The notes under the pieces were generated by a model. It saw only the letters and a program-made list of their open reading frames with translations. It was not told where the DNA came from and made no database searches. Source: a virus. Taken from it: a DNA stretch of 64,000 nucleotides. Every line of letters starts with the position of its first letter. Positions within the stretch are counted from its first letter, which is position 1. This document shows, piece by piece, positions 5,921 to 59,925 of the stretch. The stretch is taken from the IMG/VR virus record IMGVR_UViG_3300045988_125828, positions 1 through 64,000 of that record. One strand, 5' to 3'. A program made the translations under genes and the position numbers.

Positions 5921-6107
5921 GTCAAACATATTAAATAGAAAGCAGACGGAAGCCTGCTCATTGTAGGCATTTTTTATGCTTATATGTTCGCTGTATATAT
6001 AATACAACGGTTGTTACTCCCATGAGAGATGTTAATGCACTCTCAACTGCTTTCTATAAAGTATGTTTGACAATGGGGCGGTTGCAACCGTTTTTTTATT
6101 TTTTTTT
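5921..6107 (+). ncRNA. structured leader / candidate small RNA ending in an intrinsic terminator
   Basis: GTCAAACATA (5921-5930) pairs with TATGTTTGAC (6062-6071). TAGAAAGCAG (5935-5944) pairs with CTGCTTTCTA (6047-6056). Internal hairpins are present. Terminator CGGTTGCAACCG (6079-6090) is followed by a T-run. Confidence 0.35.
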
Positions 6108-6112
6108 AGAAT

Positions 6113-6490
6113 ATGATTGAAATAAGAGGAATAGAAATAACAGAAGAAATGATATTGAATGAAACAGACATTCAAGTTGTAATTAACTGGAAGAATGAAC
6201 TATTAGGTAAGCTATCCGAGTTTAAAGTAAAAACAGCACCATACAAAAGGCTGAGTGCAGGTCAGAAAAAAATAGAGACTTCTATATGGGCATTAATAAA
6301 ACTTTGCAAAGCAAAAATAGGAGATTATAATCTTAAACTAAAAGAAGAGGGAAAATGGAAATATAATAGAGAAATAAAAACGCAGAGACATCTTGCGTCT
6401 GTATTTATGGAAATAGCAAAGAATAGATTAGACAAACAAATGTATAAAGATATTTTAGAATTAGCACAAAAGAAAATAAACGAGGTATAG
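6113..6490 (+). CDS. hypothetical protein (125 aa)
   Basis: Track ORF directly after the leader terminator. Confidence 0.65.
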   Translation: MIEIRGIEITEEMILNETDIQVVINWKNELLGKLSEFKVKTAPYKRLSAGQKKIETSIWALIKLCKAKIGDYNLKLKEEGKWKYNREIKTQRHLASVFMEIAKNRLDKQMYKDILELAQKKINEV

Positions 6491-6533: not shown

Positions 6534-7349
6534 ATGGCTAAAAAGATTATTTTATCAAAGGAGAGTAGCGAAAGCGAAATCAAAGCGTATTTCATCGCAG
6601 TGTTAAAGTTGTCACAATCTGATGACGAGTTTCCAGTCAATCTTGATGAAGTATGGATGCTTGTTTACGGTCAAAAATCAGATGCTGTTTCAGCTTTGAA
6701 GTTAGATTTTATAGAAAATGTTGATTATCAAGTTTTAAGGAAAAATCCTCAAAACCCCAATGGTGGAAGACCGACAAATGAGTATAAACTCACTGTCTCC
6801 TGTATGGAGTTCTTCATCGCAAGAAAAGTAAGAGCCGTTTTTGAGGTGTACAGGAAAGTATTCCATCACACCGTTCATAAGGGAATCGAGGGAAATAATC
6901 CCAAACGAGAACCATCCCTAACAACCAAAGTTCGTGTTAGTCTTGAATGGGTAAAAGGTGTGAGCGAAATGCTCAACCTAAACGATTCTTCAAAACTTGC
7001 ATTGCTTGGAAAAGTAGCAGAACCATTAAACTTGCCACTTCCCGACTACACCCCGTCAAAAGGGATATTAAAATCAGCAACCGACCTATTGAAAGAACGG
7101 AAAACTCAAATATCCGCACGTGAATTTAATACGGTAGCAATAGAAAAAGGTTATCTGTGCGAACTGGAAAGAAAATCATCATACGGACAAAAGAAGAAAT
7201 TCAAGTCAATCACAGAGAAAGGTCTTTCTTTCGGAGAAAACCAAGTAAACCCGAACAATCCGAAAGGCACTCAACCATTATGGTACGAAAGTAAGTTTGA
7301 TGAGTTATTGGCCGTATTAGGGTTTCATTTCATAGGAGGAACTAACTAA
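6534..7349 (+). CDS. antirepressor-like / DNA-binding protein, paralog of 59293..59925
   Basis: N-terminal ~110 aa aligns by eye with the 59293 ORF (EIKxYFxAVLxLSxSxxEFPVNLDxVW ... FFIARKVRxVFxVYRxVFH). ATG 6534 is preferred over TTG 6522. Confidence 0.45.
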   Translation: MAKKIILSKESSESEIKAYFIAVLKLSQSDDEFPVNLDEVWMLVYGQKSDAVSALKLDFIENVDYQVLRKNPQNPNGGRPTNEYKLTVSCMEFFIARKVRAVFEVYRKVFHHTVHKGIEGNNPKREPSLTTKVRVSLEWVKGVSEMLNLNDSSKLALLGKVAEPLNLPLPDYTPSKGILKSATDLLKERKTQISAREFNTVAIEKGYLCELERKSSYGQKKKFKSITEKGLSFGENQVNPNNPKGTQPLWYESKFDELLAVLGFHFIGGTN

Positions 7350-10386: not shown

Positions 10387-10442
10387 TGTTTTTTGTAAAA
10401 AGGGAAAGGCTTAGTGTGCCCTTCCCCGATACCGAAATGCAA

Positions 10443-11289: not shown

Positions 11290-11425
11290 ATTATTCTGCT
11301 TTAAAACATGTAATTATTAAAAACAAAAATCACAACCCGGCGTTATTAAACTCGAAAGCCTCGTAACAACTCGGATTGTGATTGTTGTCTCTTGTGTTCG
11401 TTTCGCAGACAGAGGACAAGAGATA

Positions 11426-13347: not shown

Positions 13348-14757
13348 CTATCTGCAAGTTATATTCACTGTCTGAACATCCATAGTTACGAATGAACCTT
13401 TATTGTCAGAGGTAGCCTCAAAGACCAAATAAGAAGCGGTGCCGGACCTTAACAGGCTGCTGAAAACCAAATAGAACTCCTGATACTGTCCCTCGGTTGA
13501 AGAAGGCTCTATATATATCTGACTGATATTCTGCAAAGAACTATTTGCGGGTTGTCCGAACTGGCTGCTTTGATATGTTCCGGCCACAACAGAGCATCTT
13601 ATTTTTATGGTCCCTTCTCCTGAAGAAGGCGTGAACGATGAGTTTTCAGGAATAATGTACATCCCCTTCGCCTTACGCTCTATCTTCATCCTTACACAAA
13701 AATATCTTGTGCCTGAAAAAGAGAAAGTAAGGTCGCTGTCTCTTGAATACCAAGTAGGATTAACCAACGTAAACGCCACATAGGTAAGGCTTGCCCGGCG
13801 GCTGAAATAGTTTACTATGCTAATCCTTTTGAAAAACGGAGTATCGCTGCCATTCCATGGAGCTACAATGCCCGTTCCGCCCTCGGCACTTCCACTTGAG
13901 CTTATTTTCTGAACACCCATACATACATACAGCGACCGCCCGACAAGCTGGCTTGTATTCTGCATTATCTGCGAAAGCTGGATCTTTATATATTCTGCCC
14001 AGTCGGTAACGTTTGCAATATCTTGCCCTGATATTTGTTTGTAAGTCGGAGCGTCCATTACATAAAAAGGCATACCCGTTTCCAAGTAGCATTCAACAAC
14101 AAACCTATATCCGGAAGATGTCGTAAAAAAGTCCCTGAAATTAAAATCGGACCCCGAATTTATCATGCAAAAAGCAGTGAAGCTATCTTCATCAAACATA
14201 TTCAGTTCCGACTTATAATTAGTTATGCCTGTTGTAAACGGCTGGACAGCCGCGGTATTGTACCCTTTGAAATCACCAAGTCGGTAAGGCTCACCCTGTC
14301 CGCCTCTCGGAAGCTGATATTCCCAGTTGGGGTAATTTGCTTGAGAAGGGTTTGTGGTAATTTCATAAGCCATTTTATTGAAATACACATATCCCGCCTT
14401 CAATGTTGGGGTAACCATTCCCCACATACACCCGTCCGCACGTGTAGGGTCTGTGCTATAATCAAGGTTGAAGTTTGTTGCCTTTCGGTAAGGTTTGTAC
14501 TTGGCCCACTTGTTGATGTTAGCCCTCGTTTGGAAGAATGTTATCACCTCATTAGTGACACTTCCCCCCGCAGCGTTCAGTATGTCACGTATGTTACCTG
14601 CAAGGTTGACATTGGAATCAGGTACAATAGCCATATCATACCTCCTTCCGTATAATGGTGATACCACCAGTAACAGCAATAGACATATCACTGTCACCGT
14701 TAATCTCGTAGTCGCCATGTACGACCCTGTCCGCTTCATATAGGCTTTCATCTGCAT
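13348..14757 (-). CDS. receptor-binding / tail fibre protein, paralog 1 (probable true start ATG 14634)
   Basis: From MAIVPDSNVNLAGNIRDILNAAGGSVTNEVITFFQTRANINKWAKYKP it aligns with the N-terminus of 16144..17313. AGGAGG lies 6 nt before ATG 14634. The C-terminal two thirds are unrelated. Confidence 0.7.
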   Translation of the reverse strand: MQMKAYMKRTGSYMATTRLTVTVICLLLLLVVSPLYGRRYDMAIVPDSNVNLAGNIRDILNAAGGSVTNEVITFFQTRANINKWAKYKPYRKATNFNLDYSTDPTRADGCMWGMVTPTLKAGYVYFNKMAYEITTNPSQANYPNWEYQLPRGGQGEPYRLGDFKGYNTAAVQPFTTGITNYKSELNMFDEDSFTAFCMINSGSDFNFRDFFTTSSGYRFVVECYLETGMPFYVMDAPTYKQISGQDIANVTDWAEYIKIQLSQIMQNTSQLVGRSLYVCMGVQKISSSGSAEGGTGIVAPWNGSDTPFFKRISIVNYFSRRASLTYVAFTLVNPTWYSRDSDLTFSFSGTRYFCVRMKIERKAKGMYIIPENSSFTPSSGEGTIKIRCSVVAGTYQSSQFGQPANSSLQNISQIYIEPSSTEGQYQEFYLVFSSLLRSGTASYLVFEATSDNKGSFVTMDVQTVNITCR

Positions 14758-20300: not shown

Positions 20301-21935
20301 TCTGTCCCAAACTACTTTGTCGAGCTTCTTTCTATATTGTTTGCTTAGTTCGCTTTGTGATGAAAACTTATTATTTACAGATGTTTCAATCTCGCTAATC
20401 TGTCCTTGTATTCTTTCAAGGGTGCTTGCGCTTGGCTTATTGTTTAGTGTTACTTCAAATGTTGGTATTAGTCCCTCGCCCTCTTTTATAGAGAGAGACT
20501 GTATTATCACGTTCTCATGGTCTATCCCCATTTCGGGATCATTCACAGTAAGCCGCTTACCTTCCATTATTTCATTATAGAAGTTAGCGTTTCTTGCCAT
20601 GAAAATTTCGTCAACGCCTATGTTGTAAGAGTAGTTTGTACTACTGTATTTGGCAAGATACTCTTTAGCCCTTTCCAATAACCTGTTTTCGGCAGCACGA
20701 ATATATTCTTGTGGCATAAGTATGTTCAGAAGAACAAACTTGTCCCCAGCTTTCATATTCCAGTCCTTGTTAGGAACGGTGAAATTATCTGTATCCGCTT
20801 CTTCAAGGGTGTTTCTTCCAAGAGTAAGCGTATAGCTACCGTCCGAAGCTCTGACTATTTTTGTGATAGTAAAGGCATATCCCTGCAATGCACCACTCTT
20901 CATAGAGAGTTGCGCTTCGTCAGTTGTAAGGCTTTCGTTTAAGTCAAATCCCAAGTCATAAAGCTGTACCGTAAAAGTGGGTTGCGTTTCACTTGTTATT
21001 GCGTCAACACTCTTTATCTCGTCAATAGCCTGTCCAGCAGAGTTCTTCATCCCTGTGATAGAGGGATAAATATCGTCATAGGTCATCACGCCCTCGCGAA
21101 TCCCGTATTTGGCTATTGCCTCTTCCGAAGCCAGCACAAAGTCGGTAACTCCGTCAGTCTTAAAACTTGGCAGCATAAGACGAAGAGGAGATAAGGCGTA
21201 GTTGGCGGGGAGAACACTGTCAGTCCATTCAGGCTTTTTCGGATAACTGTAATCAAGGTTTCTTGTACCGCCATAGGCTCGTAACTTAGTTACAATTCCT
21301 GTGTCTGCATCAGATATTCGTTCAATCTCATATAATCCCTTACCTTTGCCGTATTCAAAAACATTATTCACTACCGGTTCCGCACCGCCAATGGTAACGC
21401 TTCTTCCTTTTACGAAATAATTCAGCTTGTATTCTGTGTTTACAAGAGAAAGAGCGCTCCAGCAGTTTTGGTTACTCATGGAGATGTTCTTTTCCTCGCT
21501 GTCTACGCCATCTGCAAGGGTTATGCTCCATATATCTTTCCCGTACATGGCGTCCAAGCATGCCTGTATTCTTTCTGCAAGATACTTGACCGTTCCGGTA
21601 AACTCAACAACTAAAGGAGTAGGGTAGACTATTCCGTTGTCGCTGGGAACAATATTACGCATCATGCACCTTTCAAGTTCGTATTTCAGAGAAACGAAAT
21701 TAAGGTCATAACTGTATTGATGCTTTGATATTTTCTTTACCGTAGGAAGAAGTTCCAGTTCAAACCGTTCTCCTCTATAATCTATGTAATCAAATATTTC
21801 GAAGTTGATTTTGGCATCAGATATAAAAGTCGATGTGCATGCGCGTTCCGCCATGAAAACCCCGGTGTACTCCAGCTTATCCAGTACACATCTGACTGTT
21901 TGTCCGTCCTTGCTATATACCGTAAACCGTCCCAT
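17313..21935 (-). CDS. large tail tip/fibre protein (1540 aa) with C-terminal S74 intramolecular chaperone domain
   Basis: Internal repeats ...KPSYSxxEI...TLxGYGITDA. C-terminal MYSDLRKKNV (S-D-x-R-x-K) followed by a coiled coil. Positioned after the tape measure and tail-tip genes. Confidence 0.7.
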   Translation of the reverse strand: MGRFTVYSKDGQTVRCVLDKLEYTGVFMAERACTSTFISDAKINFEIFDYIDYRGERFELELLPTVKKISKHQYSYDLNFVSLKYELERCMMRNIVPSDNGIVYPTPLVVEFTGTVKYLAERIQACLDAMYGKDIWSITLADGVDSEEKNISMSNQNCWSALSLVNTEYKLNYFVKGRSVTIGGAEPVVNNVFEYGKGKGLYEIERISDADTGIVTKLRAYGGTRNLDYSYPKKPEWTDSVLPANYALSPLRLMLPSFKTDGVTDFVLASEEAIAKYGIREGVMTYDDIYPSITGMKNSAGQAIDEIKSVDAITSETQPTFTVQLYDLGFDLNESLTTDEAQLSMKSGALQGYAFTITKIVRASDGSYTLTLGRNTLEEADTDNFTVPNKDWNMKAGDKFVLLNILMPQEYIRAAENRLLERAKEYLAKYSSTNYSYNIGVDEIFMARNANFYNEIMEGKRLTVNDPEMGIDHENVIIQSLSIKEGEGLIPTFEVTLNNKPSASTLERIQGQISEIETSVNNKFSSQSELSKQYRKKLDKVVWDRNLEERVDDNGKEYLFLTKPLITAYGVTMYAGADVQVPSIYEGLPIDGVTIQWVDGKLVATGGKGTANGIVVNGNTYTPNEDGIITLPNYPTSLEWGNISGKPSWIGSTKPSYSWDEIGGKPSVFPTNWENVSDKPSWIGATKPTYNFSEIQNKPTTLAGYGITDAYTKNDISGLLADYVTKSGAQDITGIKSFINGLNIGDILVKKHSDGVVELDGDLILTGSLTMFAQGSHTASTILDALPIDETTLSKEGGVLSVIGGVGGGSVDGIILNGTTYSPNEETKLITLPNYPTTLPASDVYSWAKQPNKPSYSFSELSSHPTTLGGYGITDAVTIDTAQEIYGIKEFATTVYISTAFDTMLAFKSLDDENFAIIDVRNKTGNSLSKFGYYGDRWAIDSNTILHIGNYAGELDNRYVNKAGDTMTGTLLMSNDSDIYGRSSANSGAAYIIGYRDATISGIVMHDISAANNTKALYIQTNGYDVPSDFGGLAITNDCVTAFGAGDNGSVFRVLNEDDISLGALFNVAKDGTLTRLGNKIWDAGNDGSGSGMDADLLDGKHLGNVGDRVMRQIGFPDYNEFGSTDANVYLRKVLGWCYNNVNTGADDSLFIGVGHPNTLGNMQIQVYCNSGINEEGYPGYSTGVYFPLGSNPIIFGTTENNYWQKTLACISDNVASATRLVTPRTIFSKPFDGTSNVTGGAKFANICIETDNNGNDSGRGSEINNYNSVLYLQHVSPNNLICCMGGGNVGIGTTSPSRKLHVAGDILASNGWLRTNGNQGWYNESYDGGIHMTDSTWVKVYNNKHFQCNGTIFGYRYTTNNNAAAFSFDKPGSYMAGIGSGGSDSLVRLGPCDSTGEWHDWGGQTWQLYGNFLTTGGITMYSDLRKKNVLNSIIVPLDVMANADLFDYTFKTDEKCKVRAGTSAQYWNVFLPQVTDTDNEGFFTMSYDVLATTCVLSMAKHFQRFLIEDFGRHETEIERLKRENEELKNRVSELERRAA

Positions 21936-22405
21936 TAGATCGAAAGTGTTATTGGTGTTTGAGGGTCAGTAACCCGGAATGTAACACTGAACGTCAACAC
22001 ATCTCCCTCGTCAGTCTTGCGAACGAAAAGATCCGGTTCTACGGATTTGTAGTAGACACTCTGCCTGCCTATCTTGGTGTAGGTATCGTAAACCTTAAGC
22101 TCTGCACCGGAATTGTCTTTGCCGGAAAGGTAATCCAAGAAGCCAATCACCTTTTCATTAGCTGTATCCATTTCTCCCTTGTATGCAAATTCCACGTCAA
22201 GATCATAGGCTTGCATGTAAAGTTTATCAGGGATAAATGTATCCTCTCCGTCCTCGTCTTTCCAGTCTCTCTTCGGCAGCTCTTTAGTTTCTCCGTAAAC
22301 AGCAAACGGAAAGTCCTTGCACACAACTCCCCATTGGGACTTTGTATCAATAACAGGACTTCCCGGCTTACTCTTTTGAAAATAGATACTGTAAAGCTTT
22401 GCCAT
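21935..22405 (-). CDS. tail tip / distal tail protein-like (by position)
   Basis: 156-aa ORF directly upstream of, and overlapping, the 1540-aa tail protein. Confidence 0.45.
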   Translation of the reverse strand: MAKLYSIYFQKSKPGSPVIDTKSQWGVVCKDFPFAVYGETKELPKRDWKDEDGEDTFIPDKLYMQAYDLDVEFAYKGEMDTANEKVIGFLDYLSGKDNSGAELKVYDTYTKIGRQSVYYKSVEPDLFVRKTDEGDVLTFSVTFRVTDPQTPITLSI

Positions 22406-22428
22406 GTGTTATCTTGAGTTTGTGTTGT

Positions 22429-22483
22429 AAAAAAACAAAAAGAGCCAACTAACGGGAATACCGTTAATCAGCTCTTTGGCTTG
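22429..22483 (-). terminator. conserved leader hairpin + T-run, copy 1 (upstream of tail-tip operon)
   Basis: Minus strand reads CAAGCCAAAGAGCT-GATTAACGGTATTCCCGTTAGTT-GGCTCTTTTTGTTTTTTT. Near-identical architecture to 36215-36265. Confidence 0.55.
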
Positions 22484-22496
22484 TTCAATGTTGATG

Positions 22497-22551
22497 CAAA
22501 TATATAGAATATATTCTAAATAATCAATACAAAAACATAGAAAATAGATGA
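22497..22551 (-). promoter_or_regulatory. late promoter (-7 TATATTTG on minus strand) with adjacent TAGAATATATTCTA palindrome and TAGAAAATAGATGA motif
   Basis: CAAATATA at 22497-22504 (+ coordinates), palindrome at 22505-22518, motif at 22538-22551. Confidence 0.5.
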
Positions 22552-22673
22552 TTTTTCTCAAGTGATTCGGATAATAAAAGGGTGGATGTGTTTTATAACA
22601 TACTGTGTATTACAACAACGTGGGTTAATTATAACGACCTTTGTATTATTATATACATATAAAACATACTAAT

Positions 22674-23255
22674 ATGAAAAAGATTTTATTATTAATGGTA
22701 ATCGTATTGCCGATGTCGATGTATTCACAAGACGTGGATAATCAATCTTCAAAAGAGAAAACCAAAATGGAGCAATTTATATCTGACACAGGCATGTCAA
22801 TTAAACTTATTGACACAGTAGTGGATGGGCTGGTGGGTAATTACATGTTTACATCCTACAAATCTGAGAATTGCGTCAGAGAAGTTGTAAAAGGAAATGA
22901 ATCGAAGTATTTTTACAGAATAGAACGCAAAGCTAAAGACGGAGATGGGGGATGTGCTTTTATAGAATATGAAGACTTAAAGGAAATAATAAACGCTATT
23001 AAGTCTATGAGAGATGATATTAAAACTGACGTTTTAAAAGAAGCGGACTATTTGGAGAATAAATTCATGACCGATGATTATTTCGTAGTAGGATATTATG
23101 TTAAAAAGAAAAAGGTGACATGGTTTATTAGATTGGAGAAGTATGGCTCTAATAAGTATTTGTATTTCAACGATAAGGGAGAAGACGGAGGCGATTACAT
23201 CCTTAGCAATTTTGAAAAAGCGTGTTCTGTTATTGAAGGGATGATTAATAAATAA
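22674..23255 (+). CDS. secreted protein (moron), signal peptide
   Basis: MKKILLLMVIVLPMSMYSQD signal-like N-terminus. Opposite strand to the flanking tail genes. Confidence 0.65.
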   Translation: MKKILLLMVIVLPMSMYSQDVDNQSSKEKTKMEQFISDTGMSIKLIDTVVDGLVGNYMFTSYKSENCVREVVKGNESKYFYRIERKAKDGDGGCAFIEYEDLKEIINAIKSMRDDIKTDVLKEADYLENKFMTDDYFVVGYYVKKKKVTWFIRLEKYGSNKYLYFNDKGEDGGDYILSNFEKACSVIEGMINK

Positions 23256-23305
23256 GACAAAGCAACAAGTATTTTCCTTCATAATTAATTAATAATACAT
23301 AAATC

Positions 23306-23980
23306 ATGAAAAAAATATTGTTTATGACGGCTTGGGTGGCCTTATACCTAATTTCGTTTGCTTCTTGTTCTTCTGACAATGAAGAAAATCTACAAAATCT
23401 TAATTCTTCAAATTTAATCGGGGTATGGGAGAGCGGTGATTATTTTATATCTTTTAATAAAGATGGATTTTATGCGGCTTATTTGGATGAAAAGTTTATT
23501 GATTCAGGGGCATATACGATAAATAAGAATAGTGTACTATGCGTAAATCCTTATAAGGTAAGTAAGACTAATTACAGTATGAGTCTTGCAAACGAGGAAT
23601 TAACAGCGGATATTTCATATACAGGCGTAAATGGTATCTCGCTAAATAAAAAAATTATTTTTTCAAAATCAAAAAAAGCTGTTGTAGATAAAAGTAATCC
23701 AGTCATAAGCAAAGAGTTTGTTCATATAAATGCTCCTTACGGGTTTTGTACAACAAGGTTTGATACTTATAATACAGCCACATATTCTACGGATGAGTTT
23801 AAACCAAGAATACAAAACTGGTTTTATTTCTTTTTTAATTCTAAGATATATGTCCAGAAATTTAAACCGGAAACGGCAGGAGTTAGCTTGTTTTATGAAG
23901 GATGTGACACAGGGGATGTTTTTATATACAATGTTACATTTGATTCAGATGGACAGATAGAAAATATTGATATTTTATAA
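23306..23980 (+). CDS. lipoprotein (moron)
   Basis: MKKILFMTAWVALYLISFASCSSDNEE: lipobox FASC. Confidence 0.7.
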   Translation: MKKILFMTAWVALYLISFASCSSDNEENLQNLNSSNLIGVWESGDYFISFNKDGFYAAYLDEKFIDSGAYTINKNSVLCVNPYKVSKTNYSMSLANEELTADISYTGVNGISLNKKIIFSKSKKAVVDKSNPVISKEFVHINAPYGFCTTRFDTYNTATYSTDEFKPRIQNWFYFFFNSKIYVQKFKPETAGVSLFYEGCDTGDVFIYNVTFDSDGQIENIDIL

Positions 23981-24031
23981 AGTGTACTTTCTGAAGCAAT
24001 TGCGTTCTTATGCAATTCACACCATAATCAG

Positions 24032-24062
24032 GGCAAGCGGAGGAAACTCCGCTTTTCTTGCC
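24032..24062 (+). terminator. intrinsic terminator after the lipoprotein gene
   Basis: GGCAAGCGGAG-GAAA-CTCCGCTT(TT)CTTGCC. Confidence 0.6.
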
Positions 24063-24071
24063 TTACATATT

Positions 24072-24159
24072 TTCGTTCTATCTTTCTAAAATTACTATTG
24101 TTAAAAAACTGATTTATTGGTTATTTATTTGCTTATTCGTTCTATCTTTCTTATATTTG
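24072..24159 (+). promoter_or_regulatory. 16-bp direct repeat TTCGTTCTATCTTTCT (x2) plus -7 box TATATTTG
   Basis: Repeat copies at 24072-24087 and 24136-24151. TATATTTG at 24152-24159, 20 nt before ATG 24179. Confidence 0.5.
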
Positions 24160-24178
24160 CATATCAAATAGCGCTATA

Positions 24179-24427
24179 ATGAGTAATTGGAGCGAAAAAC
24201 AAGAAGCGAAGAAAGAGGGCAAGGAAAAGGATAAGGTAAGGCGTGAAAAACTTGCAGGATTCTTTTTTAATTTGGCGCAAGTTTCTTTCACTGTATTATC
24301 TTTGGGATTGGCAATAACCCTTGTGAAAGAAGAACTTTATGATAACATTTTATTAATTGTTCTTGTTTCTATGGGAATTATACTTACGGTATTATTTGCA
24401 AAAATAGGTAATAACATTTTAAGATAA
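24179..24427 (+). CDS. small membrane protein (82 aa, 2 TM segments, Lys/Glu-rich N-terminus)
   Basis: Track ORF with GFFFNLAQVSFTVLSLGLAITLV and ILLIVLVSMGIILTVLFA. Confidence 0.6.
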   Translation: MSNWSEKQEAKKEGKEKDKVRREKLAGFFFNLAQVSFTVLSLGLAITLVKEELYDNILLIVLVSMGIILTVLFAKIGNNILR

Positions 24428-24538: not shown

Positions 24539-24643
24539 ATGGATGGATTGACAATATTATTTATATTTACGAGTATAATAGGGGGAGGTTTTGCACTTTG
24601 GCTTAAAACCAAGTCAGGCAAGAAGTGGCTTGCAAGCTTATAA
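24539..24643 (+). CDS. 34-aa single-TM peptide (paralog B)
   Basis: MDGLTILFIFTSIIGGGFALWLKTKSGKKWLASL. Confidence 0.4.
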   Translation: MDGLTILFIFTSIIGGGFALWLKTKSGKKWLASL

Positions 24644-24671
24644 ATTGACTATTATTTAGATAAAACAATAA

Positions 24672-24697
24672 AGCCAGACACTACATCTGGCTTTTTC
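24672..24697. terminator. hairpin + T-run at the convergent junction
   Basis: AGCCAGA-cactaca-TCTGGCT followed by TTTTT. Confidence 0.5.
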
Positions 24698-36191: not shown

Positions 36192-36214
36192 CGTGTTTTA
36201 TTTAGTTGTGTTAT

Positions 36215-36265
36215 AAAAAAAAAGAGCCTATCAACGCTTTGTGCGTCAATAAGCTCTTTGGCTTG
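36215..36265 (-). terminator. conserved leader hairpin + T-run, copy 2 (upstream of head operon)
   Basis: Minus strand reads CAAGCCAAAGAGCT-TATTGACGCACAAAGCGTTGATA-GGCTCTTTTTTTTT. The inner helix pairs fully only as minus-strand RNA (G-U pairs). Confidence 0.55.
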
Positions 36266-36282
36266 CATATCTAATATTACTA

Positions 36283-36462
36283 TTATTCCTTCGTCAGTCT
36301 AACTCTCATAAATTTACGGCATCTCCTGCATATAATCCTAATGGAAGAACTTCCGCAAACTTCCTCAACGTCCATTATTTTCTGTTTACACACCGGACAT
36401 ATTGCGAAGTTTCCTTTTCTATCAGGTAACTCTTCATCGAGTTGGACATCAATTTTTATCAT
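36283..36462 (-). CDS. 59-aa zinc-ribbon protein (Mu Com-like architecture)
   Basis: MIKIDVQLDEELPDRKGNFAICPVCKQKIMDVEEVCGSSSIRIICRRCRKFMRVRLTKE with CxxC-17-CxxC. Just below the track cut-off. Confidence 0.45.
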   Translation of the reverse strand: MIKIDVQLDEELPDRKGNFAICPVCKQKIMDVEEVCGSSSIRIICRRCRKFMRVRLTKE

Positions 36463-36481
36463 ATCACATGATTTAATAATG

Positions 36482-36571
36482 CAAATATATCATCTATTTT
36501 CTATAAAAACAATATTATAGACATATTTTTAAGGGTAAAATTTAGAAAATAGATGAAAAATCGTATATTTG
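36482..36571. promoter_or_regulatory. divergent late control region: two -7 boxes and inverted TAGAAAATAGATGA motifs
   Basis: Minus-strand -7 box CAAATATA at 36482-36489, abutting TCATCTATTTTCTA at 36490-36503. Plus-strand TAGAAAATAGATGA at 36543-36556 and TATATTTG at 36564-36571. Confidence 0.5.
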
Positions 36572-36648
36572 CACTATATATTACTCATAGAGCTGTGAAT
36601 CAAGCCGGAGTATGCAAAATCATATTGCATGCGACGGCTTATTTTTTT

Positions 36649-39339
36649 ATGGAATACGACGGAATTGTACATACAAAAAATGGAGAAGGCGTATTTACTT
36701 ATGCGCACATAGAAAAGCTGCGTGAATATGGAAATCCGCTTAATATAATCGCCCAAAAAGGATGTCAAGAAAAGTTCCTTGCGTCTCCGGCAGATATTAC
36801 TATATTTGGAGGAAACCGTGGTGGCGGAAAAGCGCTGATATTCAATGAATTAGTGTGTACTCCGTTCGGATTTAGAAAAATCCAAGACATTAAAGCGGGC
36901 GACATAATCACTGGTCTTGACGGAGGAATGCAAAGGGTTGTTTACAATTCCTATCAGGGATTTAAAGAGTGCGTAAGGCTTAAATTCGTTGACGGCTCTT
37001 ATGCTGACTGCTGCATAGATCACTTATGGAATATCAAGCAATCTAACCATTGTTCAAAGAAAAGGGCTTTATATAACCTCCCCTTAGAGGATGAATGGCG
37101 AGTGTGGACTACTCAAATGATTATAGACCACATGAAAAAGCAGAAGGGGAAGAAGCAGTCGCGTCATTTATCTGTTCCGTTGTGCAAGCCCGTTCGATTT
37201 ACCAAAGGAAAATATTTCAAGCCTAAATTCAGCCCGTATCTGATTGGTGCACTCATTGGGGACGGATGTATTGCCGATAGTGTAATCAGTAAGAACTGTT
37301 GTTATTTATTTAATCCTGACGAGGAAGTCATTGGCGAGTTCAAGAAATCAGTAGGGTATTCTTCTTGCGAGTTTGAGAAAGGCTGCTACCGCATGCGCAT
37401 CAACGACAAAGAGCTTATCGCAGAGATTCAGAAATTGAATATAACAGGGCGTGCGGCAGATAAACACGTCCCTGACATGTATTTATATGGGACGCTGGAG
37501 GAAAGATGGGCGCTTGTTCAGGGCTTAATGGATACCGACGGAACTATTGATGAAAGAGGGCACCTGTCTTATACTACAATAAGCAAACAGCTTGCGGAAG
37601 ATGTAAAATTCCTTATCAACAGTTTGGGAGGATTGGCGACAATTGGCAGAGGCACCGCGGGGTATAGAAATAGCAATGGAGAATTTATACAATGTAATGA
37701 CGCATACACTCTTTATATAAGAATCCCGGATGCCGAAAGGATGTTTCGCGTAAAAAGGAAAAAAGAAAGATGCAAACCTTATAATGGCGGGATAAGCATC
37801 AATGCGAGAAGAATCATAGGCTACGAGATGATAGGGAAGAAGGAGTGTTGCTGTATTGCAGTGACCAATCCGGACAGTTTGTTTCTAACAAGGGATTTTA
37901 TTGTCACTCATAATTCTTGGGCCTTGCTAATGGAGGTCTTGAAAGATATAAATAACCCGAATTTTGCTTCCGTAATCCTGAGAAACGAAAAAGAGGACTT
38001 GAGTAATATAGTAAACAAGTCTTATGAGCTTTTCTCTCAATACGGAAAGTACAACCGCTCTATCTCGGATATGACTTGGAACTTCTATAACGGAGGGTTT
38101 TTAAAGTTTTCCTATTATGCGGATTCTTACGAAGACTTCGTAAAGCGTTTTCAGGGAAAAGAGTTTGCCTTTATCGGTATAGACGAAATCACTCACTCTG
38201 ATTACCTGAAGTTCAAATACCTTATTACCAACAACCGTAATGCCTACGGTATAAGAAACCGTTTTTATGGCACATGTAACCCTGATCCGGATAGCTGGGT
38301 ACGTAAATTCATAGACTGGTGGATTGATGAAAACGGTAACCCTATTCCGGAGCGAGACGGGGTAATACGCTATTGCTTCATGGACGGCGACCGACCGGAA
38401 GATATTTACTGGGGGGATTCCGTAGACGAAGTTTATAACCAATGCAGGCATATCATAGATCCGTTACTTACGCCTGGTCTTATCAGTAAGGGTTACGACA
38501 AGTCGGCATTCGTGAAGACAGTCACATTCATAAAGGGAAAGCTTGAAGAGAACGTTGCTCTTATATCTTCCGACCCTAATTATTTAGCCAACCTGGCCCA
38601 GCAGGACGAAGAATCTCGCGCAAGGGACTTGGAGGGAAACTGGAACTTTAAAGCTGCCGGGGATGATATTATCAAGATGGAACACATGGAGCGCTTCTTT
38701 AAAAATACCGCCCAATACGGAGACGAGAAGCGCAGGGTATCATGCGATATTGCATACGAGGGAGGAGACAACCTTGTCTTGTGGCTGTGGATCGGAAACC
38801 ATATCGAAGATGTGTATGTGAGTAGGGATAATTCCAAGCGGACGGAAGAGTGTGTTGCCTATAAACTTAGAGAGTGGGGCGTGCTGGAAAAGGATTTTGT
38901 TTTTGACTTAAACGGCCCCGGTCAGGATTTTAAAGGGAAATTCCCCGATGCGGTCAGATTTAATAACATGGCTGCTCCGATACCCGCGACAAAAGCGGAT
39001 GAGAAATCAATCAAGTATGTGTACTCCTCTTTAAAATCACAGTGTGCAGATATTCTTGTAAAAAAGATAAAGAACGAGGAGATATCCATAAATTCCGATT
39101 TGTTATCGCGCAAATTCTCCGGAAACGGATATTCCGGAGTAACCCTTTATAATATTCTTATGAAAGAGAGAAAGGCTATTCGGGACGCGGAAACAGACAA
39201 AGGGTTTGCCTTAATTAAAAAGGAGACTATGAAAAAATACGTAGGGCACTCTCCTGACTTTATAGAAGCGATGATTTACAGACAAATTTTTGATATAAAA
39301 AAACATAACACAAAACCAAAAGGATTATGGAGATTATAA
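36649..39339 (+). CDS. terL: terminase large subunit, interrupted by an intein
   Basis: FGGNRGGGK...(intein)...SWALL, Walker B FAFIGIDEIT, GTCNPDP. ATG 36649 is preferred because the track start 36553 lies inside the regulatory motif. Confidence 0.85.
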   Translation: MEYDGIVHTKNGEGVFTYAHIEKLREYGNPLNIIAQKGCQEKFLASPADITIFGGNRGGGKALIFNELVCTPFGFRKIQDIKAGDIITGLDGGMQRVVYNSYQGFKECVRLKFVDGSYADCCIDHLWNIKQSNHCSKKRALYNLPLEDEWRVWTTQMIIDHMKKQKGKKQSRHLSVPLCKPVRFTKGKYFKPKFSPYLIGALIGDGCIADSVISKNCCYLFNPDEEVIGEFKKSVGYSSCEFEKGCYRMRINDKELIAEIQKLNITGRAADKHVPDMYLYGTLEERWALVQGLMDTDGTIDERGHLSYTTISKQLAEDVKFLINSLGGLATIGRGTAGYRNSNGEFIQCNDAYTLYIRIPDAERMFRVKRKKERCKPYNGGISINARRIIGYEMIGKKECCCIAVTNPDSLFLTRDFIVTHNSWALLMEVLKDINNPNFASVILRNEKEDLSNIVNKSYELFSQYGKYNRSISDMTWNFYNGGFLKFSYYADSYEDFVKRFQGKEFAFIGIDEITHSDYLKFKYLITNNRNAYGIRNRFYGTCNPDPDSWVRKFIDWWIDENGNPIPERDGVIRYCFMDGDRPEDIYWGDSVDEVYNQCRHIIDPLLTPGLISKGYDKSAFVKTVTFIKGKLEENVALISSDPNYLANLAQQDEESRARDLEGNWNFKAAGDDIIKMEHMERFFKNTAQYGDEKRRVSCDIAYEGGDNLVLWLWIGNHIEDVYVSRDNSKRTEECVAYKLREWGVLEKDFVFDLNGPGQDFKGKFPDAVRFNNMAAPIPATKADEKSIKYVYSSLKSQCADILVKKIKNEEISINSDLLSRKFSGNGYSGVTLYNILMKERKAIRDAETDKGFALIKKETMKKYVGHSPDFIEAMIYRQIFDIKKHNTKPKGLWRL
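36832..37914 (+). mobile_element. intein (361 aa) with LAGLIDADG homing endonuclease domain
   Basis: ALIFNELV...FIVTHN/S. Block B CCIDHLW, block F ECCCIAV. LAGLIDADG motifs YLIGALIGDGCI and LVQGLMDTDGTI. Confidence 0.8.
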
Positions 39340-44422: not shown

Positions 44423-44495
44423 CAAATATACAACTACTTGATAATAAAACAAGTAATTTTCTAAAAAATAGGGGTAAAATTTAGAAAATAGGTGA
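44423..44495. promoter_or_regulatory. primase promoter (-7 box on minus strand) plus inverted motif ATTTTCTA-N18-TAGAAAATAGGTGA
   Basis: CAAATATA at 44423-44430, ATTTTCTA at 44456-44463, TAGAAAATAGGTGA at 44482-44495. Confidence 0.45.
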
Positions 44496-47727: not shown

Positions 47728-48570
47728 ATGGAAACATTAAAGGACGTTTTTTTGAAAAAATACCCGCAATACGGAAAGGTGCTGCGGGTATATGAAGAGG
47801 TTAACGAAACGGAGTGCACCTTCGAGAGTATTACAAAACCAAGGTTGTACAACTTTGTTCAGGCTCTTAATGACAGGCTGGCAACAAACAGTGCTAAAAC
47901 CTATTGCGCTATGTTTAAATCGGTTCTTAACCTGTACAGCGATATGTATTCTTTCCCGAAAGGCTTTGAAGCTATATTAACCCTGAAGAAGGACGCAACG
48001 CAAAGTACATGGTTAACGGATGAAGAGATCAAAAAACTACTCTCATACGATCCGGTTAATGATACAGAACGGATAGTGAAAAACTGTTTTCTTCTCGGTT
48101 GCCTGACAGGTGCAAGACATTCGGACTACGTATGTTTTACAGAGGACAATATAATAGACGGACGACTGGTTTATATTTCCCAAAAAACGAAAACGAAAGC
48201 GGAAATTCCGGCGGCTCCGGCTGTGTTACGGATATTAGAGGAAAACAAAAGATACGACATTAGCCAACGTAAGCTGTCTGATGTGACATTTAATGATACG
48301 ATAAGGAGTATATGCCGGAAGTGTGGAATAAACCAACGAATAAAACTGTATCAGGCGGGCGAATATGCAACCGGGGAAAAGTGGGAGTTTATTTCCTCGC
48401 ATTCAGCGCGGAAGTCTTGCGCAACAAACTTATATCTAAGGGGAGCGGATCTGTATTCTATCAGCCGGATGTTAGGACACTCCAGTGTAACCATGACAGA
48501 AACGTATATTTGTTGCGGGCTGCGTGAATTGTCAGATAAGATAATGAGCTATTTCAACGGGTTTAAATAA
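47728..48570 (+). CDS. tyrosine recombinase (280 aa, XerC/D-size)
   Basis: LTGARHSDY, HSARKSCATNL, LGHSSVTMTETY (R..H-x-x-R..H..Y). ATG 47728 within the track ORF. Confidence 0.8.
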   Translation: METLKDVFLKKYPQYGKVLRVYEEVNETECTFESITKPRLYNFVQALNDRLATNSAKTYCAMFKSVLNLYSDMYSFPKGFEAILTLKKDATQSTWLTDEEIKKLLSYDPVNDTERIVKNCFLLGCLTGARHSDYVCFTEDNIIDGRLVYISQKTKTKAEIPAAPAVLRILEENKRYDISQRKLSDVTFNDTIRSICRKCGINQRIKLYQAGEYATGEKWEFISSHSARKSCATNLYLRGADLYSISRMLGHSSVTMTETYICCGLRELSDKIMSYFNGFK

Positions 48571-49166: not shown

Positions 49167-50300
49167 TTACAATTTACTGTCCATCTTTTCAAATTCTTCT
49201 TGTACGGATTTGTTTAGCACTTTTGCATAAATCTGTGTAGTCTTTATATCTGTATGTCCCATCATTTTTGCAAGGTTTTCGATTGATACCCCCATATTCA
49301 ATGCCATAACCGCAAAACTATGCCGGGCCATGTGTGAATGAAGGCTTTGCTTTATCCTTGCAAGCTCCTGAATGACTTTTAGTCTTAAATTATACTGGTA
49401 GTTGCTTATCACAGGTAGTTTGAAGTCATATTTTTGTAAAATCTCCATTGCGGGCTTAAGAAGCATCAGGAAATATTCCTCTTCTGTCTTTACCCTTATG
49501 TCTCTTATGAAAAACTTGTTTCCTTTCTTGATCACACCGCTAAAATCGAAGTTGAACAAGTCAGCATAAGACAAACCCGTAAAACATTGAAATATGAACA
49601 AGTCCCTTACCCGTTCGATGCTCTCTGATGCTATTTCTAAGCCTTGTATTCGCTTTATCTGTTCTAAGGTGAGGTATTTTATGCCCTCGCTCTTTCCGCG
49701 CTCAAATTTAAGCTTATTGTACGGGTTGTCTTTCAGTAAATCATATTTGATTGCTTCGTTTATATACCTTTTCAGTCGCTTATGATAGCCATGTATAGTA
49801 GTCTGCTTGTTATACTTCCCATGTAGGAAATTGTCATAGTGCATTATATTGGCCGTTGTGATGTCTGTGAAATAGACGATCCGACCGAACTCTTCCAGGG
49901 ATGTTATTAAGGAGGCATGTGTATTTAACGTTCCTCGTCTAAGGTCGGTTCTTTCGCTCACTCTCCGTTTTATGAAATCTATAAAGCTTTCTTTTGTTTG
50001 GGAATACTTTAAAAAGTGTTCCAGCTTATCAAAACTGAAAGGTTCTTTGTTTTTTACCAACCCGTTTATGAACTCGTTGATGTTCCGCATTTGCGTATCG
50101 AGCCTTTCGTTGAGATCTAAAGACTGGACGGTATTCTTGACTTTTGTCTTTTCGCTCCATTGATCGGAATACAACCGAACGCCTGTACTTAACCATTTTC
50201 TTTTCCGTTCAAACAAAATTTCTATTTGAACGGTTCCTTTTGTTGTCTTGCTTGCCGTATGTTTACGGTCAAAAACAAACCTTAATACTGGATACTTCAT
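49167..50300 (-). CDS. int: tyrosine integrase (377 aa, Bacteroidota CTnDOT/NBU-like type)
   Basis: HMARHSFAVMAL...GHTDIKTTQIYAKV. Box I reads FTGLSYADL (Ser where Arg I is usual). Confidence 0.85.
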   Translation of the reverse strand: MKYPVLRFVFDRKHTASKTTKGTVQIEILFERKRKWLSTGVRLYSDQWSEKTKVKNTVQSLDLNERLDTQMRNINEFINGLVKNKEPFSFDKLEHFLKYSQTKESFIDFIKRRVSERTDLRRGTLNTHASLITSLEEFGRIVYFTDITTANIMHYDNFLHGKYNKQTTIHGYHKRLKRYINEAIKYDLLKDNPYNKLKFERGKSEGIKYLTLEQIKRIQGLEIASESIERVRDLFIFQCFTGLSYADLFNFDFSGVIKKGNKFFIRDIRVKTEEEYFLMLLKPAMEILQKYDFKLPVISNYQYNLRLKVIQELARIKQSLHSHMARHSFAVMALNMGVSIENLAKMMGHTDIKTTQIYAKVLNKSVQEEFEKMDSKL

Positions 50301-51785: not shown

Positions 51786-51810
51786 ACTATAAAATATTAT
51801 AGTATCTTTG
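51786..51810 (+). promoter_or_regulatory. operator-like palindrome ACTATAAAATATTATAGT overlapping the -7 box TATCTTTG
   Basis: Palindrome at 51786-51803, -7 box at 51803-51810. The same palindrome type occurs twice at 54218-54265. Confidence 0.5.
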
Positions 51811-51815
51811 CACCC

Positions 51816-51919
51816 GTTGCAAGTCAAGCGGCAACAGATACATGATTAAACAATCGCCCTAACGTGGGCCTCTCTATATGGAAATCCGTTGCCGCTTGAC
51901 TTTAGCAACGGATTTTTTT
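51816..51919 (+). promoter_or_regulatory. transcription attenuator (alternative anti-terminator / terminator helices)
   Basis: AAGTCAAGCGGCAAC (51821-51835) pairs with GTTGCCGCTTGACTT (51888-51902). This competes with AAATCCGTTGC (51882-51892) pairing with GCAACGGATTT (51905-51915), which is followed by a T-run. Confidence 0.5.
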
Positions 51920-51933
51920 GTTTATGTAAATAT

Positions 51934-59292: not shown

Positions 59293-59925
59293 ATGCCAAA
59301 GTACAATGAAATCAGAGTTGAGCAGAACAATAGTATGCCCCTCTTTGCGCCTAACAGTGCGACAACTGTATCGTTATCTCTACTAAGTACCACAAGCGAA
59401 ATCAAACGCTACTTCATGGCGGTGCTTGAATTATCAAAATCAAAAGAAGAATTTCCGGTAAATCTTGATGCGGTGTGGGCACTTGCTTATACCACCAAAA
59501 GAAACGCCTTTGTTGAACTTAAAAAATCATTTATTGAAGGTGTTGATTTTTACCTTATGCAAAAGAATAAGGTCATAAATACCAACAACTTAGCAAACGG
59601 AGTAAAATACGATTGCTACCTTTCCCTACCCTGCATAGAATTCTTCATAGCAAGGAAAGTTCGCCCCGTATTTGATGTGTACCGCGAAGTCTTCCACAAG
59701 GTAAACGAGATTGTCCCGAAGGTTGCCAAATCAAGCGCAGCCGACAAACGGAAGATAGCAAGACTTGAAAAAGAAATCGAAACACTCGAAGAACAACTCA
59801 AATGGGCAAGGTGGAGCGAACGCAGGGAAATAGAACTAAAGTGCGCTTGCTTCTCCTATCTCGTAAAGACGAAGCAATACAAGAACTGGGAAGAATACAG
59901 AAGAACGGGGATAGTCAAAAAGTAA
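59293..59925 (+). CDS. antirepressor-like / DNA-binding protein, paralog of 6534..7349
   Basis: Shared N-terminal domain (see 6534..7349), then a C-terminal coiled coil. Confidence 0.45.
   Translation: MPKYNEIRVEQNNSMPLFAPNSATTVSLSLLSTTSEIKRYFMAVLELSKSKEEFPVNLDAVWALAYTTKRNAFVELKKSFIEGVDFYLMQKNKVINTNNLANGVKYDCYLSLPCIEFFIARKVRPVFDVYREVFHKVNEIVPKVAKSSAADKRKIARLEKEIETLEEQLKWARWSERREIELKCACFSYLVKTKQYKNWEEYRRTGIVKK

Follow-up and report, generated by a model that had tools for sequence, protein, structure and literature searches.

We analyzed a 64,000-nucleotide stretch of viral DNA (positions 1 to 64,000 of the IMG/VR record IMGVR_UViG_3300045988_125828, hereafter the window), which holds most of a ~70 kb temperate siphovirus related to the Bacteroides phage LoVEphage. 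Every one of its three late operons (terminase/portal, head, and tail-tip/lysis) opens with a near-consensus Bacteroides -7 promoter and then a terminator-like hairpin (Table 1). This arrangement suggests an undescribed read-through (antitermination) switch for late genes. With moderate confidence, we read the leader elements as conditional intrinsic terminators that gate the late operons and are read through with the help of a phage factor. An initial annotation of the tail-tip leader had described a succession of promoter, terminator-like hairpin and late operon that occurs twice. The succession stands as a structure; the count does not, because a third module lies at the terminase large subunit gene (TerL).

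Anatomy of the late leaders

The terminase gene, with an intein-like insert, and the portal gene lie on the plus strand from ~36.6 kb. On the minus strand, the head-tail operon extends from 36.2 kb down to the tape measure gene and a gene for a 168-aa protein. It begins with a 219-aa scaffold-like protein (ATG 36191), followed by the decoration protein and the major capsid protein. The tail-tip/lysis operon, on the same strand, runs from 22405 downwards, and its first gene encodes 156 aa (22405..21935, -).

The tail and head leaders carry two copies of one element. In each, a single unbroken 17-bp helix with a conserved base (AAAGAGC/GCTCTTT) is preceded by CAAGCC and followed by a U-run, and it lies ~27 nt ahead of the first tail-tip or the first head gene. 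The initial annotation had placed both copies correctly and its description of their sequence holds. The 6-bp inner hairpin that it distinguished is not separate and belongs to the uninterrupted 17-bp helix; the G·U pairs that it reported for the head copy are there, but they occur in the tail copy as well. Both traits of an intrinsic terminator were found, namely the stem (17 bp with 6 G-C pairs and a conserved GAGC/GCTC base) and the U-run (TTTTTGTTTTTTT, T9 and T7 in the tail, head and TerL copies, respectively). Three of the nine T of the head run are paired in the stem. A U-run is present in 39 of 39 distinct homologous hairpins.

The two-copy element is more than a chance resemblance. 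The 14-mer CAAGCCAAAGAGCT occurs exactly twice in the window, once at each of the two sites, and has no further copy at up to two mismatches. The tail hairpin has a folding free energy (dG) of -25.5 kcal/mol (z = -6.3) and the head hairpin one of -23.1 kcal/mol (z = -6.2), with 0 of 200 shuffles folding as well in either case, and the two are the top terminator-like matches in 20 kb. A covariance model built from homologues recognized just two sites in the 64 kb, the head copy at 74 bits and the tail copy at 64 bits. A 3-mismatch match at 24592-24605 was considered as a third copy and rejected; the real structure nearby is an ordinary bidirectional terminator (24670-24694).

The tail leader is a promoter-proximal terminator leader, as the initial annotation had proposed for both copies. 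The head leader departs from this description, since 222 nt separate its -7 box from the stem and a 59-aa zinc-ribbon open reading frame (ORF) lies in between. The third module, on the plus strand, has the order TTTAGAAAATAGATGA, N7, TATATTTG, N17, AGAGCT, hairpin, T7 and ATG 36649. Its hairpin was not recognized by the head/tail covariance model (E = 9.5), and judged by its sequence it is a structural analogue of the head and tail hairpins and not a sequence copy. Among the terminator-like structures of the window, the three leader hairpins rank with the strongest.

The T7 tract of the TerL leader (36642-36648) abuts ATG 36649, which is in frame with the ORF called mechanically (36553-39339, +, 928 aa) and is the probable true terminase start. 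The terminase start is probably misplaced both in the mechanical ORF of the window and in the record of the related phage BI-TP1. In the latter (L138, PQ571265) the annotated terminase coding sequence begins ahead of the leader hairpin (30655), and the probable start is ATGGAGAAATAT at ~30686. The same record lists a 37-aa 'gp18' (14049-14162) in the promoter region of the tail operon, just upstream of the tail leader; this is a spurious ORF.

The positions of the hairpins dispose of two simple explanations. The tail copy lies in a divergent intergenic region, with plus-strand genes from 22641 and no upstream minus-strand gene to terminate, so that only transcripts from its own promoter meet the tail hairpin. 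Ordinary end-of-operon terminators were accordingly rejected for the tail and TerL copies, which both sit in divergent promoter regions with nothing upstream to terminate. A promoter hidden between hairpin and ATG was also rejected, as this space is 0-27 nt long and contains no TAnnTTTG; at TerL the U-run abuts the start codon and therefore leaves no room for a downstream promoter.

Table 1. Positions of the leader elements, the zinc-ribbon ORF and the internal hairpins in the window
Feature	Position	Strand	Remarks
Tail promoter, -7 box TATATTTG then CA	22504..22497	-	Bacteroides TAnnTTTG consensus
Motif pair TCATCTATTTTCTA ... TTTAGAATATA upstream of tail promoter	22511..22551		repeat families
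Tail hairpin unpaired 5' flank, CAAGCC	22483..22478	-	conserved; 13 nt after -7 box
Tail leader terminator hairpin, AAAGAGCTGATTAACGG-tattc-CCGTTAGTTGGCTCTTT	22477..22439	-	17 bp including G·U pairs, 5-nt loop
Tail U-run, TTGTTTTTTT	22438..22429	-	directly 3' of stem
Tail CA/A-rich untranslated leader ACAACACAAACTCAAGATAACAC and ATG	22428..22403	-	ATG at 22405
Head promoter, -7 box TATATTTG then CA	36489..36482	-	repeat family, 78% identical to tail promoter over 36 nt
Zinc-ribbon ORF, 59 aa (CPVC...CRRC)	36462..36283	-	first cistron after head promoter; candidate trans factor
Head hairpin 5' flank, CAAGCC	36265..36260	-	conserved
Head leader terminator hairpin	36259..36221	-	17 bp, 5-nt loop
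Head U-run	36220..36212	-	then ATAACACAAC, then ATG 36191
Terminase/portal promoter, -7 box TATATTTG then CA	36564-36571	+	TTTAGAAAATAGATGA upstream at 36541-36556
AGAGCT box	36589-36594	+	17-19 nt after -7 box in TerL leaders, in all hairpin-bearing clades
TerL leader terminator hairpin, AAGCCGG..CCGGCTT	36602-36640	+	dG -23.8 kcal/mol, z -3.8
Hairpin inside tail/lysis operon, between ORFs	11382..11328	-	intrinsic-terminator-like, dG -30.6 kcal/mol, z -5.2
Second internal hairpin of tail/lysis operon, between ORFs	10427..10398	-	dG -18.1, z -3.7

Conservation and selection at the RNA level

We sampled 80 loci around homologues of the scaffold-like head protein, 54 loci around homologues of the first tail-tip protein and the terminase loci of 51 bacterial genomes, together with walks along contigs and three contigs reached via zinc-ribbon homologues. 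The promoter-hairpin arrangement was found at the same three operon starts in the clade of the window, in a ~75%-identical clade, in LoVEphage/BI-TP1 and in IMG/VR relatives, and also in prophages of Bacteroides, Phocaeicola, Parabacteroides, Paraprevotella, Muribaculaceae and Petrimonas. These comparisons strengthen the initial reading of the structure. Some relatives (for instance, contig 3300018427_000038) are hairpin-less. The tail -7 box is in the same place in all relatives, with diverging flanks. Between clades the stems are unrelated in sequence (for instance, AGAAAGGTTCGGATTCC.../...GGGGTTTGAGCCTTTCT versus AGAGCTTGTTGTGGAGA.../...TCTCTGCGGCAAGCTCT in tail leaders), and a 15-18-bp hairpin with its U-run is kept throughout, the U-run following the stem in all hairpin-bearing relatives.

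The stems have changed in a way that preserves pairing. Over 22 head and tail hairpins, 87.2% of the cells are paired, compared with 78.5% after column shuffling (none of 500 shuffles reached the observed value), and both sides have changed at 9 of the 17 pairs (1 of 500 shuffles as high). Slid-register controls are 30-55% paired. For the TerL leaders, MAFFT followed by RNAalifold predicted 0 pairs, the stems having diverged too far for a sequence alignment, and per-sequence folds were used instead. The 39 distinct hairpins of all three classes contain 575 Watson-Crick pairs, 102 G·U pairs and 8 A·C mismatches, and the sense fold is the stronger one in 35 of them, the mean difference from the antisense fold being 5.7 kcal/mol. 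Because G·U pairs far outnumber A·C mismatches and the sense strand is the one that folds better, the element is selected as RNA on the coding (sense) strand. The claim that it functions as RNA, first made from the pairing of a single copy, now has this excess and the compensatory changes behind it.

This result bears directly on whether the element acts as DNA instead, as a cruciform or protein-binding palindrome at module boundaries (a recombination or cassette hotspot, or a packaging signal). The tail copy does adjoin a variable cargo cassette (22641-24427) and one copy adjoins the terminase gene. We nevertheless regard a DNA-level function as highly improbable and rejected it on the G·U versus A·C asymmetry, which leaves the antisense strand, and hence a cruciform, mismatched and its folds weaker on average. 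Moreover, the stem sequence is not conserved between clades, hence there is no site for a sequence-specific protein, and the copies match operon starts and not genome ends.

Selection at the RNA level is compatible with RNA functions of whichever kind, including one in which the hairpin is not mainly a terminator and serves stability, processing or translation as part of the 5' untranslated region. It might, for instance, shield from RNases either the late mRNA at its 5' end or the upstream tRNA/ORF transcript at its 3' end, or the U-rich/CA-rich tract might be an unstructured landing site for ribosomes in the Shine-Dalgarno-poor Bacteroidota. The element always lies 0-30 nt ahead of the first start codon of the operon, and the A/C-rich tract after the head and tail hairpins is conserved, also in hairpin-less relatives, which keep, for instance, the ACAACACAAAC leader before the tail ATG. 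The same relatives show, however, that translation needs no hairpin, since they retain the CA-rich leader without it. A hairpin 13-35 nt from the predicted 5' end is too far inside for classical 5'-end protection, and a U-run after a GC-closed stem that persists while the stem itself is replaced is a geometry specific to terminators and unneeded by stabilizers. We consider this function rather improbable.

Some words of the leaders are conserved beyond what pairing requires. In TerL leaders the box after the promoter reads AGAGCT, AGAGCC, AGAGGT or AGAGTT, and 5-9 nt later the hairpin opens with (A)AGCCGG. Head and tail leaders have (A/G)GCC, then 1-3 nt, then AGAGC as the base of the stem. 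The three leaders of one genome carry the same variants; for instance, AGAGG is found in both the TerL and the head leaders of L154/L285. This pattern is what a common sequence-specific partner could produce, to judge from the sequences; common descent together with the need for a G-C-rich stem base could produce it as well.

The conserved words could also be read as seeds or binding sites of small RNAs. The terminated leader RNAs of the tail and TerL modules (~60-75 nt) would then act in trans on host or phage mRNAs or proteins, through single-stranded CAAGCC and AGAGC. Within a genome all three leaders conserve AAGCC and AGAGC beyond the needs of pairing, as do the leaders of different clades; the stretch from promoter to terminator is of small-RNA length; and the window holds another unit of ~100 nt with promoter, structured RNA and U-run (51803-51920). 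We give the idea little credence, because the head hairpin lies 220 nt to >1 kb from its promoter and yields no comparable small RNA, the element is always tied to an operon start, and no Rfam family matches. It is, besides, compatible with terminators that gate the operons. The Rfam search gave no match in the window at gathering thresholds, and local E-value scans gave sub-threshold noise only.

A zinc-ribbon ORF that accompanies the hairpins

The initial annotation missed a plausible trans factor in the window, the 59-aa zinc-ribbon ORF, which co-occurs with the hairpins across lineages. The ORF is conserved upstream of the head hairpin throughout, with 0-8 tRNA genes between the two; in LoVEphage, an array of eight tRNAs likewise lies between the head promoter and the head terminator. 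Its homologues form ~100 clusters at 90% identity, none of them annotated. The near-invariant residues are C22/C25/C45/C48, P23, G26, Q27, K28, R46 and R47, and the AlphaFold2 model is a confident four-strand zinc ribbon with a predicted local distance difference test (pLDDT) score of 88.6.

The ORF is present at every locus with leader hairpins, and no genome with hairpins and without the ORF was found among the sampled loci. Over the whole late region, five lineages have three hairpins together with the ORF (the window, L017/L101, contig ..134521, BI-TP1 and contig ..124563). In contig 3300018427_000038 the ORF and the tail, head and TerL hairpins are all missing; its promoters and CA-rich leaders are retained. 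A further set of at least 12 prophages that lack the head and TerL hairpins also lacks the ORF; hairpin-less, ORF-less loci are L151/L177, L157-159, 162, 166, 168, 169 and 171, L165, L170/L172 and L161, as well as L270, L274, L275 and L276. On the terminase (TerL) tree, the state with hairpins and ORF and the state with neither are interleaved. From these sequence patterns we tentatively take the zinc-ribbon protein as the prime candidate for the factor; it might be the antiterminator.

Control at the late promoters

In the window, the extended -7 form TATATTTGCA is found just at intergenic sites ahead of genes. The late promoters share upstream motifs with others: the motif pair TCAyCTATTTTCTA / TAGAAAATA is common to late, primase and switch-region promoters. 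The TAGAAAATA-type motif is conserved and abuts the -7 box (at the head promoter, TAGAAAATAGATGA directly upstream of the box at ~36490-36503), and the same upstream motif is also found at an early promoter. The sequence of the pair resembles an operator or activator site common to these promoters. The hairpins are confined to late-operon starts: promoters of early type that match the same -7 consensus lack them, for instance that of the primase (44430) and those at 24152 and 48619. The initial transcribed region of the late leaders contains no repeat of the -7 element.

Further observations concern these promoters. The pair, in the form TCAyCTATTTTCTA ... T(T)TAGAAAAT(A), lies at 22511-22551, 36490-36556, 44455-44495 and 54375-54411, ahead of the tail, the divergent head/TerL, the primase and the switch-region promoters, respectively, and AGAAAAT versions stand upstream of the -7 box in relatives too. 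In the switch region two -7 boxes face each other ~100 nt apart (54265-54272, +, and 54360-54367, -), so that their transcripts would overlap, which resembles the lysis-lysogeny switches of P2/186-type phages. The minus-strand promoter of this pair (54360-54367) is followed by a weak hairpin and a U-run (dG -13.1).

RNA sequencing (RNA-seq) of induced LoVE prophages placed the virion genes in a delayed 'middle-late' class and grouped the tRNAs with them (preprint 10.64898/2026.06.25.734096). Since these tRNAs lie upstream of the head terminator, the late promoters, here the head promoter, seem to be regulated themselves, which fits the shared upstream motif pair. The head promoter thus appears regulated, unlike the constitutive lambda pR'.

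If the promoters are regulated, the terminators might simply be constitutive and partly efficient, acting as attenuators or insulators with no phage factor while all timing is set at the promoters. They would then fix ratios (ORF and tRNAs high, downstream genes low) or damp leaky late transcription in the lysogen. The operator-like motif pair shared by the late promoters and the 'middle-late' class of the LoVE tRNAs upstream of the head terminator (preprint 10.64898/2026.06.25.734096) speak for this possibility, as do the failure of the Pfam search of ~60 window proteins to return a known antiterminator homologue, the common use of operon-internal terminators as step-down devices in phages, and the fact that hairpin-less relatives function. 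Three observations make us think it unlikely, if still worth weighing. A 17-bp hairpin of -23 to -25 kcal/mol with 7-9 U is a very strong stop before the most-needed proteins; the tail and TerL terminators have no cargo upstream of them, hence no ratio to set; and the co-occurrence with the ORF, including that of the distant tail hairpin, is left unexplained.

Two internal hairpins of the tail/lysis operon (Table 1) bear on the same choice. No -7 box follows either of them in the list of -7 boxes of the window. These internal terminators could fit processive read-through, and step-down attenuation equally.

A proposed model of gated late operons

We favor conditional termination because such a strong stop before scaffold, decoration and capsid genes is sensible only if it can be overcome. 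From the sequence we infer termination, a short leader RNA and induced read-through. Host sigma-A RNA polymerase would start at the near-consensus -7 promoters of the terminase/portal, head and tail-tip/lysis operons. As long as the phage factor is absent, most transcripts would end at the 15-18-bp hairpin and its U-run. The tail and TerL leaders would then give terminated RNAs of ~60-75 nt, and the head leader a terminated transcript with only the zinc-ribbon ORF, plus the tRNAs in LoVEphage. Once the factor is present, polymerase would continue into the structural genes, and maybe past the internal tail/lysis terminators too.

The position of the zinc-ribbon ORF would make the switch self-timed. 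Being encoded ahead of the head terminator, the protein would be made once the head promoter fires, terminator or not, and its accumulation would open the three dispersed late operons after a delay between early and late expression. It may act by binding nascent RNA at the AGAGC/AAGCC words of the terminator base, or by modifying RNA polymerase. A delayed opening of three operons would fit the early and middle-late classes seen in the LoVE induction RNA-seq.

Several points weigh against this model. The transcription start sites are placed by the -7 boxes alone. A Pfam search of ~60 window proteins returned no homologue of Q, N, NusG or sigma, in line with the earlier remark that no Q-like or N-like protein is recognizable; the annotation of BI-TP1 lists no Q, N, NusG or sigma family either, and PHROGs gave structural annotations and no antiterminator. 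For the zinc-ribbon protein itself, Pfam gave generic zinc-ribbon matches at noise level, and the PDB gave no match by sequence profile and, by Foldseek on the AlphaFold2 model, none with E < 1. Control at the promoter level exists, as the LoVE tRNAs upstream of the head terminator are middle-late, and might be sufficient alone, while the operator-like motif of the late promoters is also present at an early promoter. Related phages manage without hairpins, and the basic late programme can therefore run without the element. Finally, the L156/L282 lineage has the ORF and the head hairpin without a TerL hairpin, and the set is therefore not strictly all-or-none. The co-occurrence could in part be block inheritance, since the ORF lies within ~0.5 kb of the TerL and head hairpins. 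At a distance of 14 kb, the tail hairpin is the sole one that escapes this confound, and it was tested in six lineages.

If the model is true, it would bring a new class of antiterminator to a phylum that transcribes with machinery unlike that of E. coli, and it would explain the transition from early to middle-late expression in the RNA-seq data. It would also provide compact, orthogonal terminator/antiterminator parts for Bacteroides synthetic biology and help to correct annotations such as that of the terminase start. The proposed mechanism is testable and requires a single small gene together with three RNA elements (40-60 nt each). Prophages of the LoVEphage type belong to the most prevalent temperate phages of the human gut and were detected in ~8% of viromes (PMC12629997), and LoVE prophages are inducible models in B. 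thetaiotaomicron (preprint 10.64898/2026.06.25.734096).

Other features of the window

The head gene matches IMG/VR contig 3300045988_135065 at 100%, and the start of the head operon shows ~75% DNA similarity to LoVEphage, BI-TP1 and PV4-TP1. The minus-strand tail module is interrupted by a cargo cassette of three plus-strand genes (22641-24427). Lipoprotein-type signal peptides are present in two of its products, and the remaining one is a membrane protein of 82 aa; the cassette is bounded by the bidirectional terminator at 24670-24694 (AAAGCCAGA...TCTGGCTTT). In BI-TP1 this slot is occupied by ~4 kb that include a KilA-N regulator, and in other relatives by 7-9 kb; it is empty in the hairpin-less ones.

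The intein-like insert of the terminase is ~370 aa long, lies at the P-loop and contains a LAGLIDADG_3 domain; its PHROG matches are to helicase/primase families, which often hold inteins. It is absent from the BI-TP1 terminase, and inserts are also found in prophages L165, L168, L170, L172, L174 and L283.

Two further units combine a hairpin and a T-tract with a start codon. At 51803-51936 (+), the -7 box TATCTTTG (51803-51810) is followed by an RNA of ~100 nt and ATG 51934 (273 aa). This RNA folds into one long helix ending in U7 (dG -48.8, z -7.1). Its 5' segment GTTGCAAGTCAAGCGGCAAC approximates the reverse complement of the 5' arm and loop of its own terminator, so two alternative folds are possible. 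The unit lies in the lysogeny-control region and could act there as an attenuator or give rise to a phage small RNA. At 6062-6115 (+) lies a small unit of promoter, hairpin, U-run and start codon (TATGTTTG, then CGGTTGCAACCG, T7AT9 and ATG 6113); this hairpin is weak (dG -7.2, z -1.5) and the arrangement may be due to chance.

A 104-nt direct repeat (72% identity, 6564-6667 and 59386-59489) reflects two paralogous genes, 6534-7349 and 59293-59925, with a common N-terminal domain that gives a weak AntA-like match. The early/lysogeny region also encodes a HicA/HicB toxin-antitoxin pair (58342-58978, +), two tyrosine recombinases (47728-48570, +, and 49167-50300, -) and an RNase H (52876-53349, +).

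Comparison with known systems

In the literature we found no account of terminators or of antitermination in Bacteroides siphoviruses, LoVEphage included, and the putative read-through factor of the terminator-gated late operons is probably novel. In the same host group, the NusG-like UpxY proteins provide dedicated antitermination through the 5' leaders of long operons (capsule loci); the window, however, encodes no NusG/KOW protein detectable by Pfam. HK022 put shows that a leader RNA alone can modify RNA polymerase. The hairpins described here differ in having the geometry of terminators, a stem and then a U-run, and in matching no Rfam family.

Antiterminators of the BglG/SacY/LicT class with their ribonucleic antiterminator (RAT) sites, and the regulators TRAP, PyrR and HutP, also act on a terminator in a 5' leader. 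The likeness extends to a short conserved word (AGAGC, AAGCC) in or just 5' of the 5' arm of the terminator, where a bound protein could block the hairpin. Among the ~60 window proteins, however, there is no CAT_RBD/PRD or known RNA-binding antiterminator domain, no alternative antiterminator stem is evident, the motif is just 5-6 nt long, and the operons are late operons of a phage.

Small zinc proteins offer other parallels. Com, a zinc-finger protein of phage Mu (62 aa), binds the mom leader RNA at a hairpin region. Like the 59-aa protein, it is a tiny Cys4 zinc ribbon whose gene lies directly ahead of a structured leader governing a late function. Its likeness to the 59-aa ORF is a lead only and family membership is not supported, as the best match to Zn_ribbon_Com, seen in one of seven diverse members, scored 11.5 bits (E = 0.22) where the cut-off is 22.9, and this family is not among the top ones of another Pfam search. 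Com also differs in activating translation and not read-through. Several late operons are turned on together by P2 Ogr, 186 B and P4 Delta, which are likewise small zinc proteins of the Cys4 type; they do so by promoter activation via DNA sites and the RNA polymerase alpha subunit, with no leader terminators, and the zinc-ribbon protein has no Ogr_Delta match in Pfam.

Closest in logic is lambda pR'-tR'-Q, with which the initial annotation had compared the leaders. As in lambda, a host-type promoter is followed by a strong intrinsic terminator and then the late structural genes, a short leader RNA is predicted, and read-through of further downstream terminators would be needed. Lambda Q contains a zinc-binding motif. 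The layout thus agrees, whereas three separate modules stand in place of one, and the head terminator is 0.2 to >1 kb from its promoter with the ORF and, in some genomes, tRNAs in between. The promoters are of the Bacteroides sigma-A -7 type, with no sigma-dependent pause element or Q-binding element (QBE) identified, and they seem regulated and not constitutive. No Q homologue was found among the ~60 window proteins or in the BI-TP1 annotation, and the candidate is instead the zinc ribbon of 59 aa. A scheme like that of lambda, in which the promoter is constitutive and the terminator exerts all the control, does not apply to these operons. It is possible, and we put it forward tentatively, that the zinc-ribbon protein and the AGAGC/AAGCC-marked terminators form an undescribed, self-timed antitermination system of Bacteroidales temperate phages, whose antiterminator family would be unrelated to Q, N, the NusG paralogues and the BglG class.

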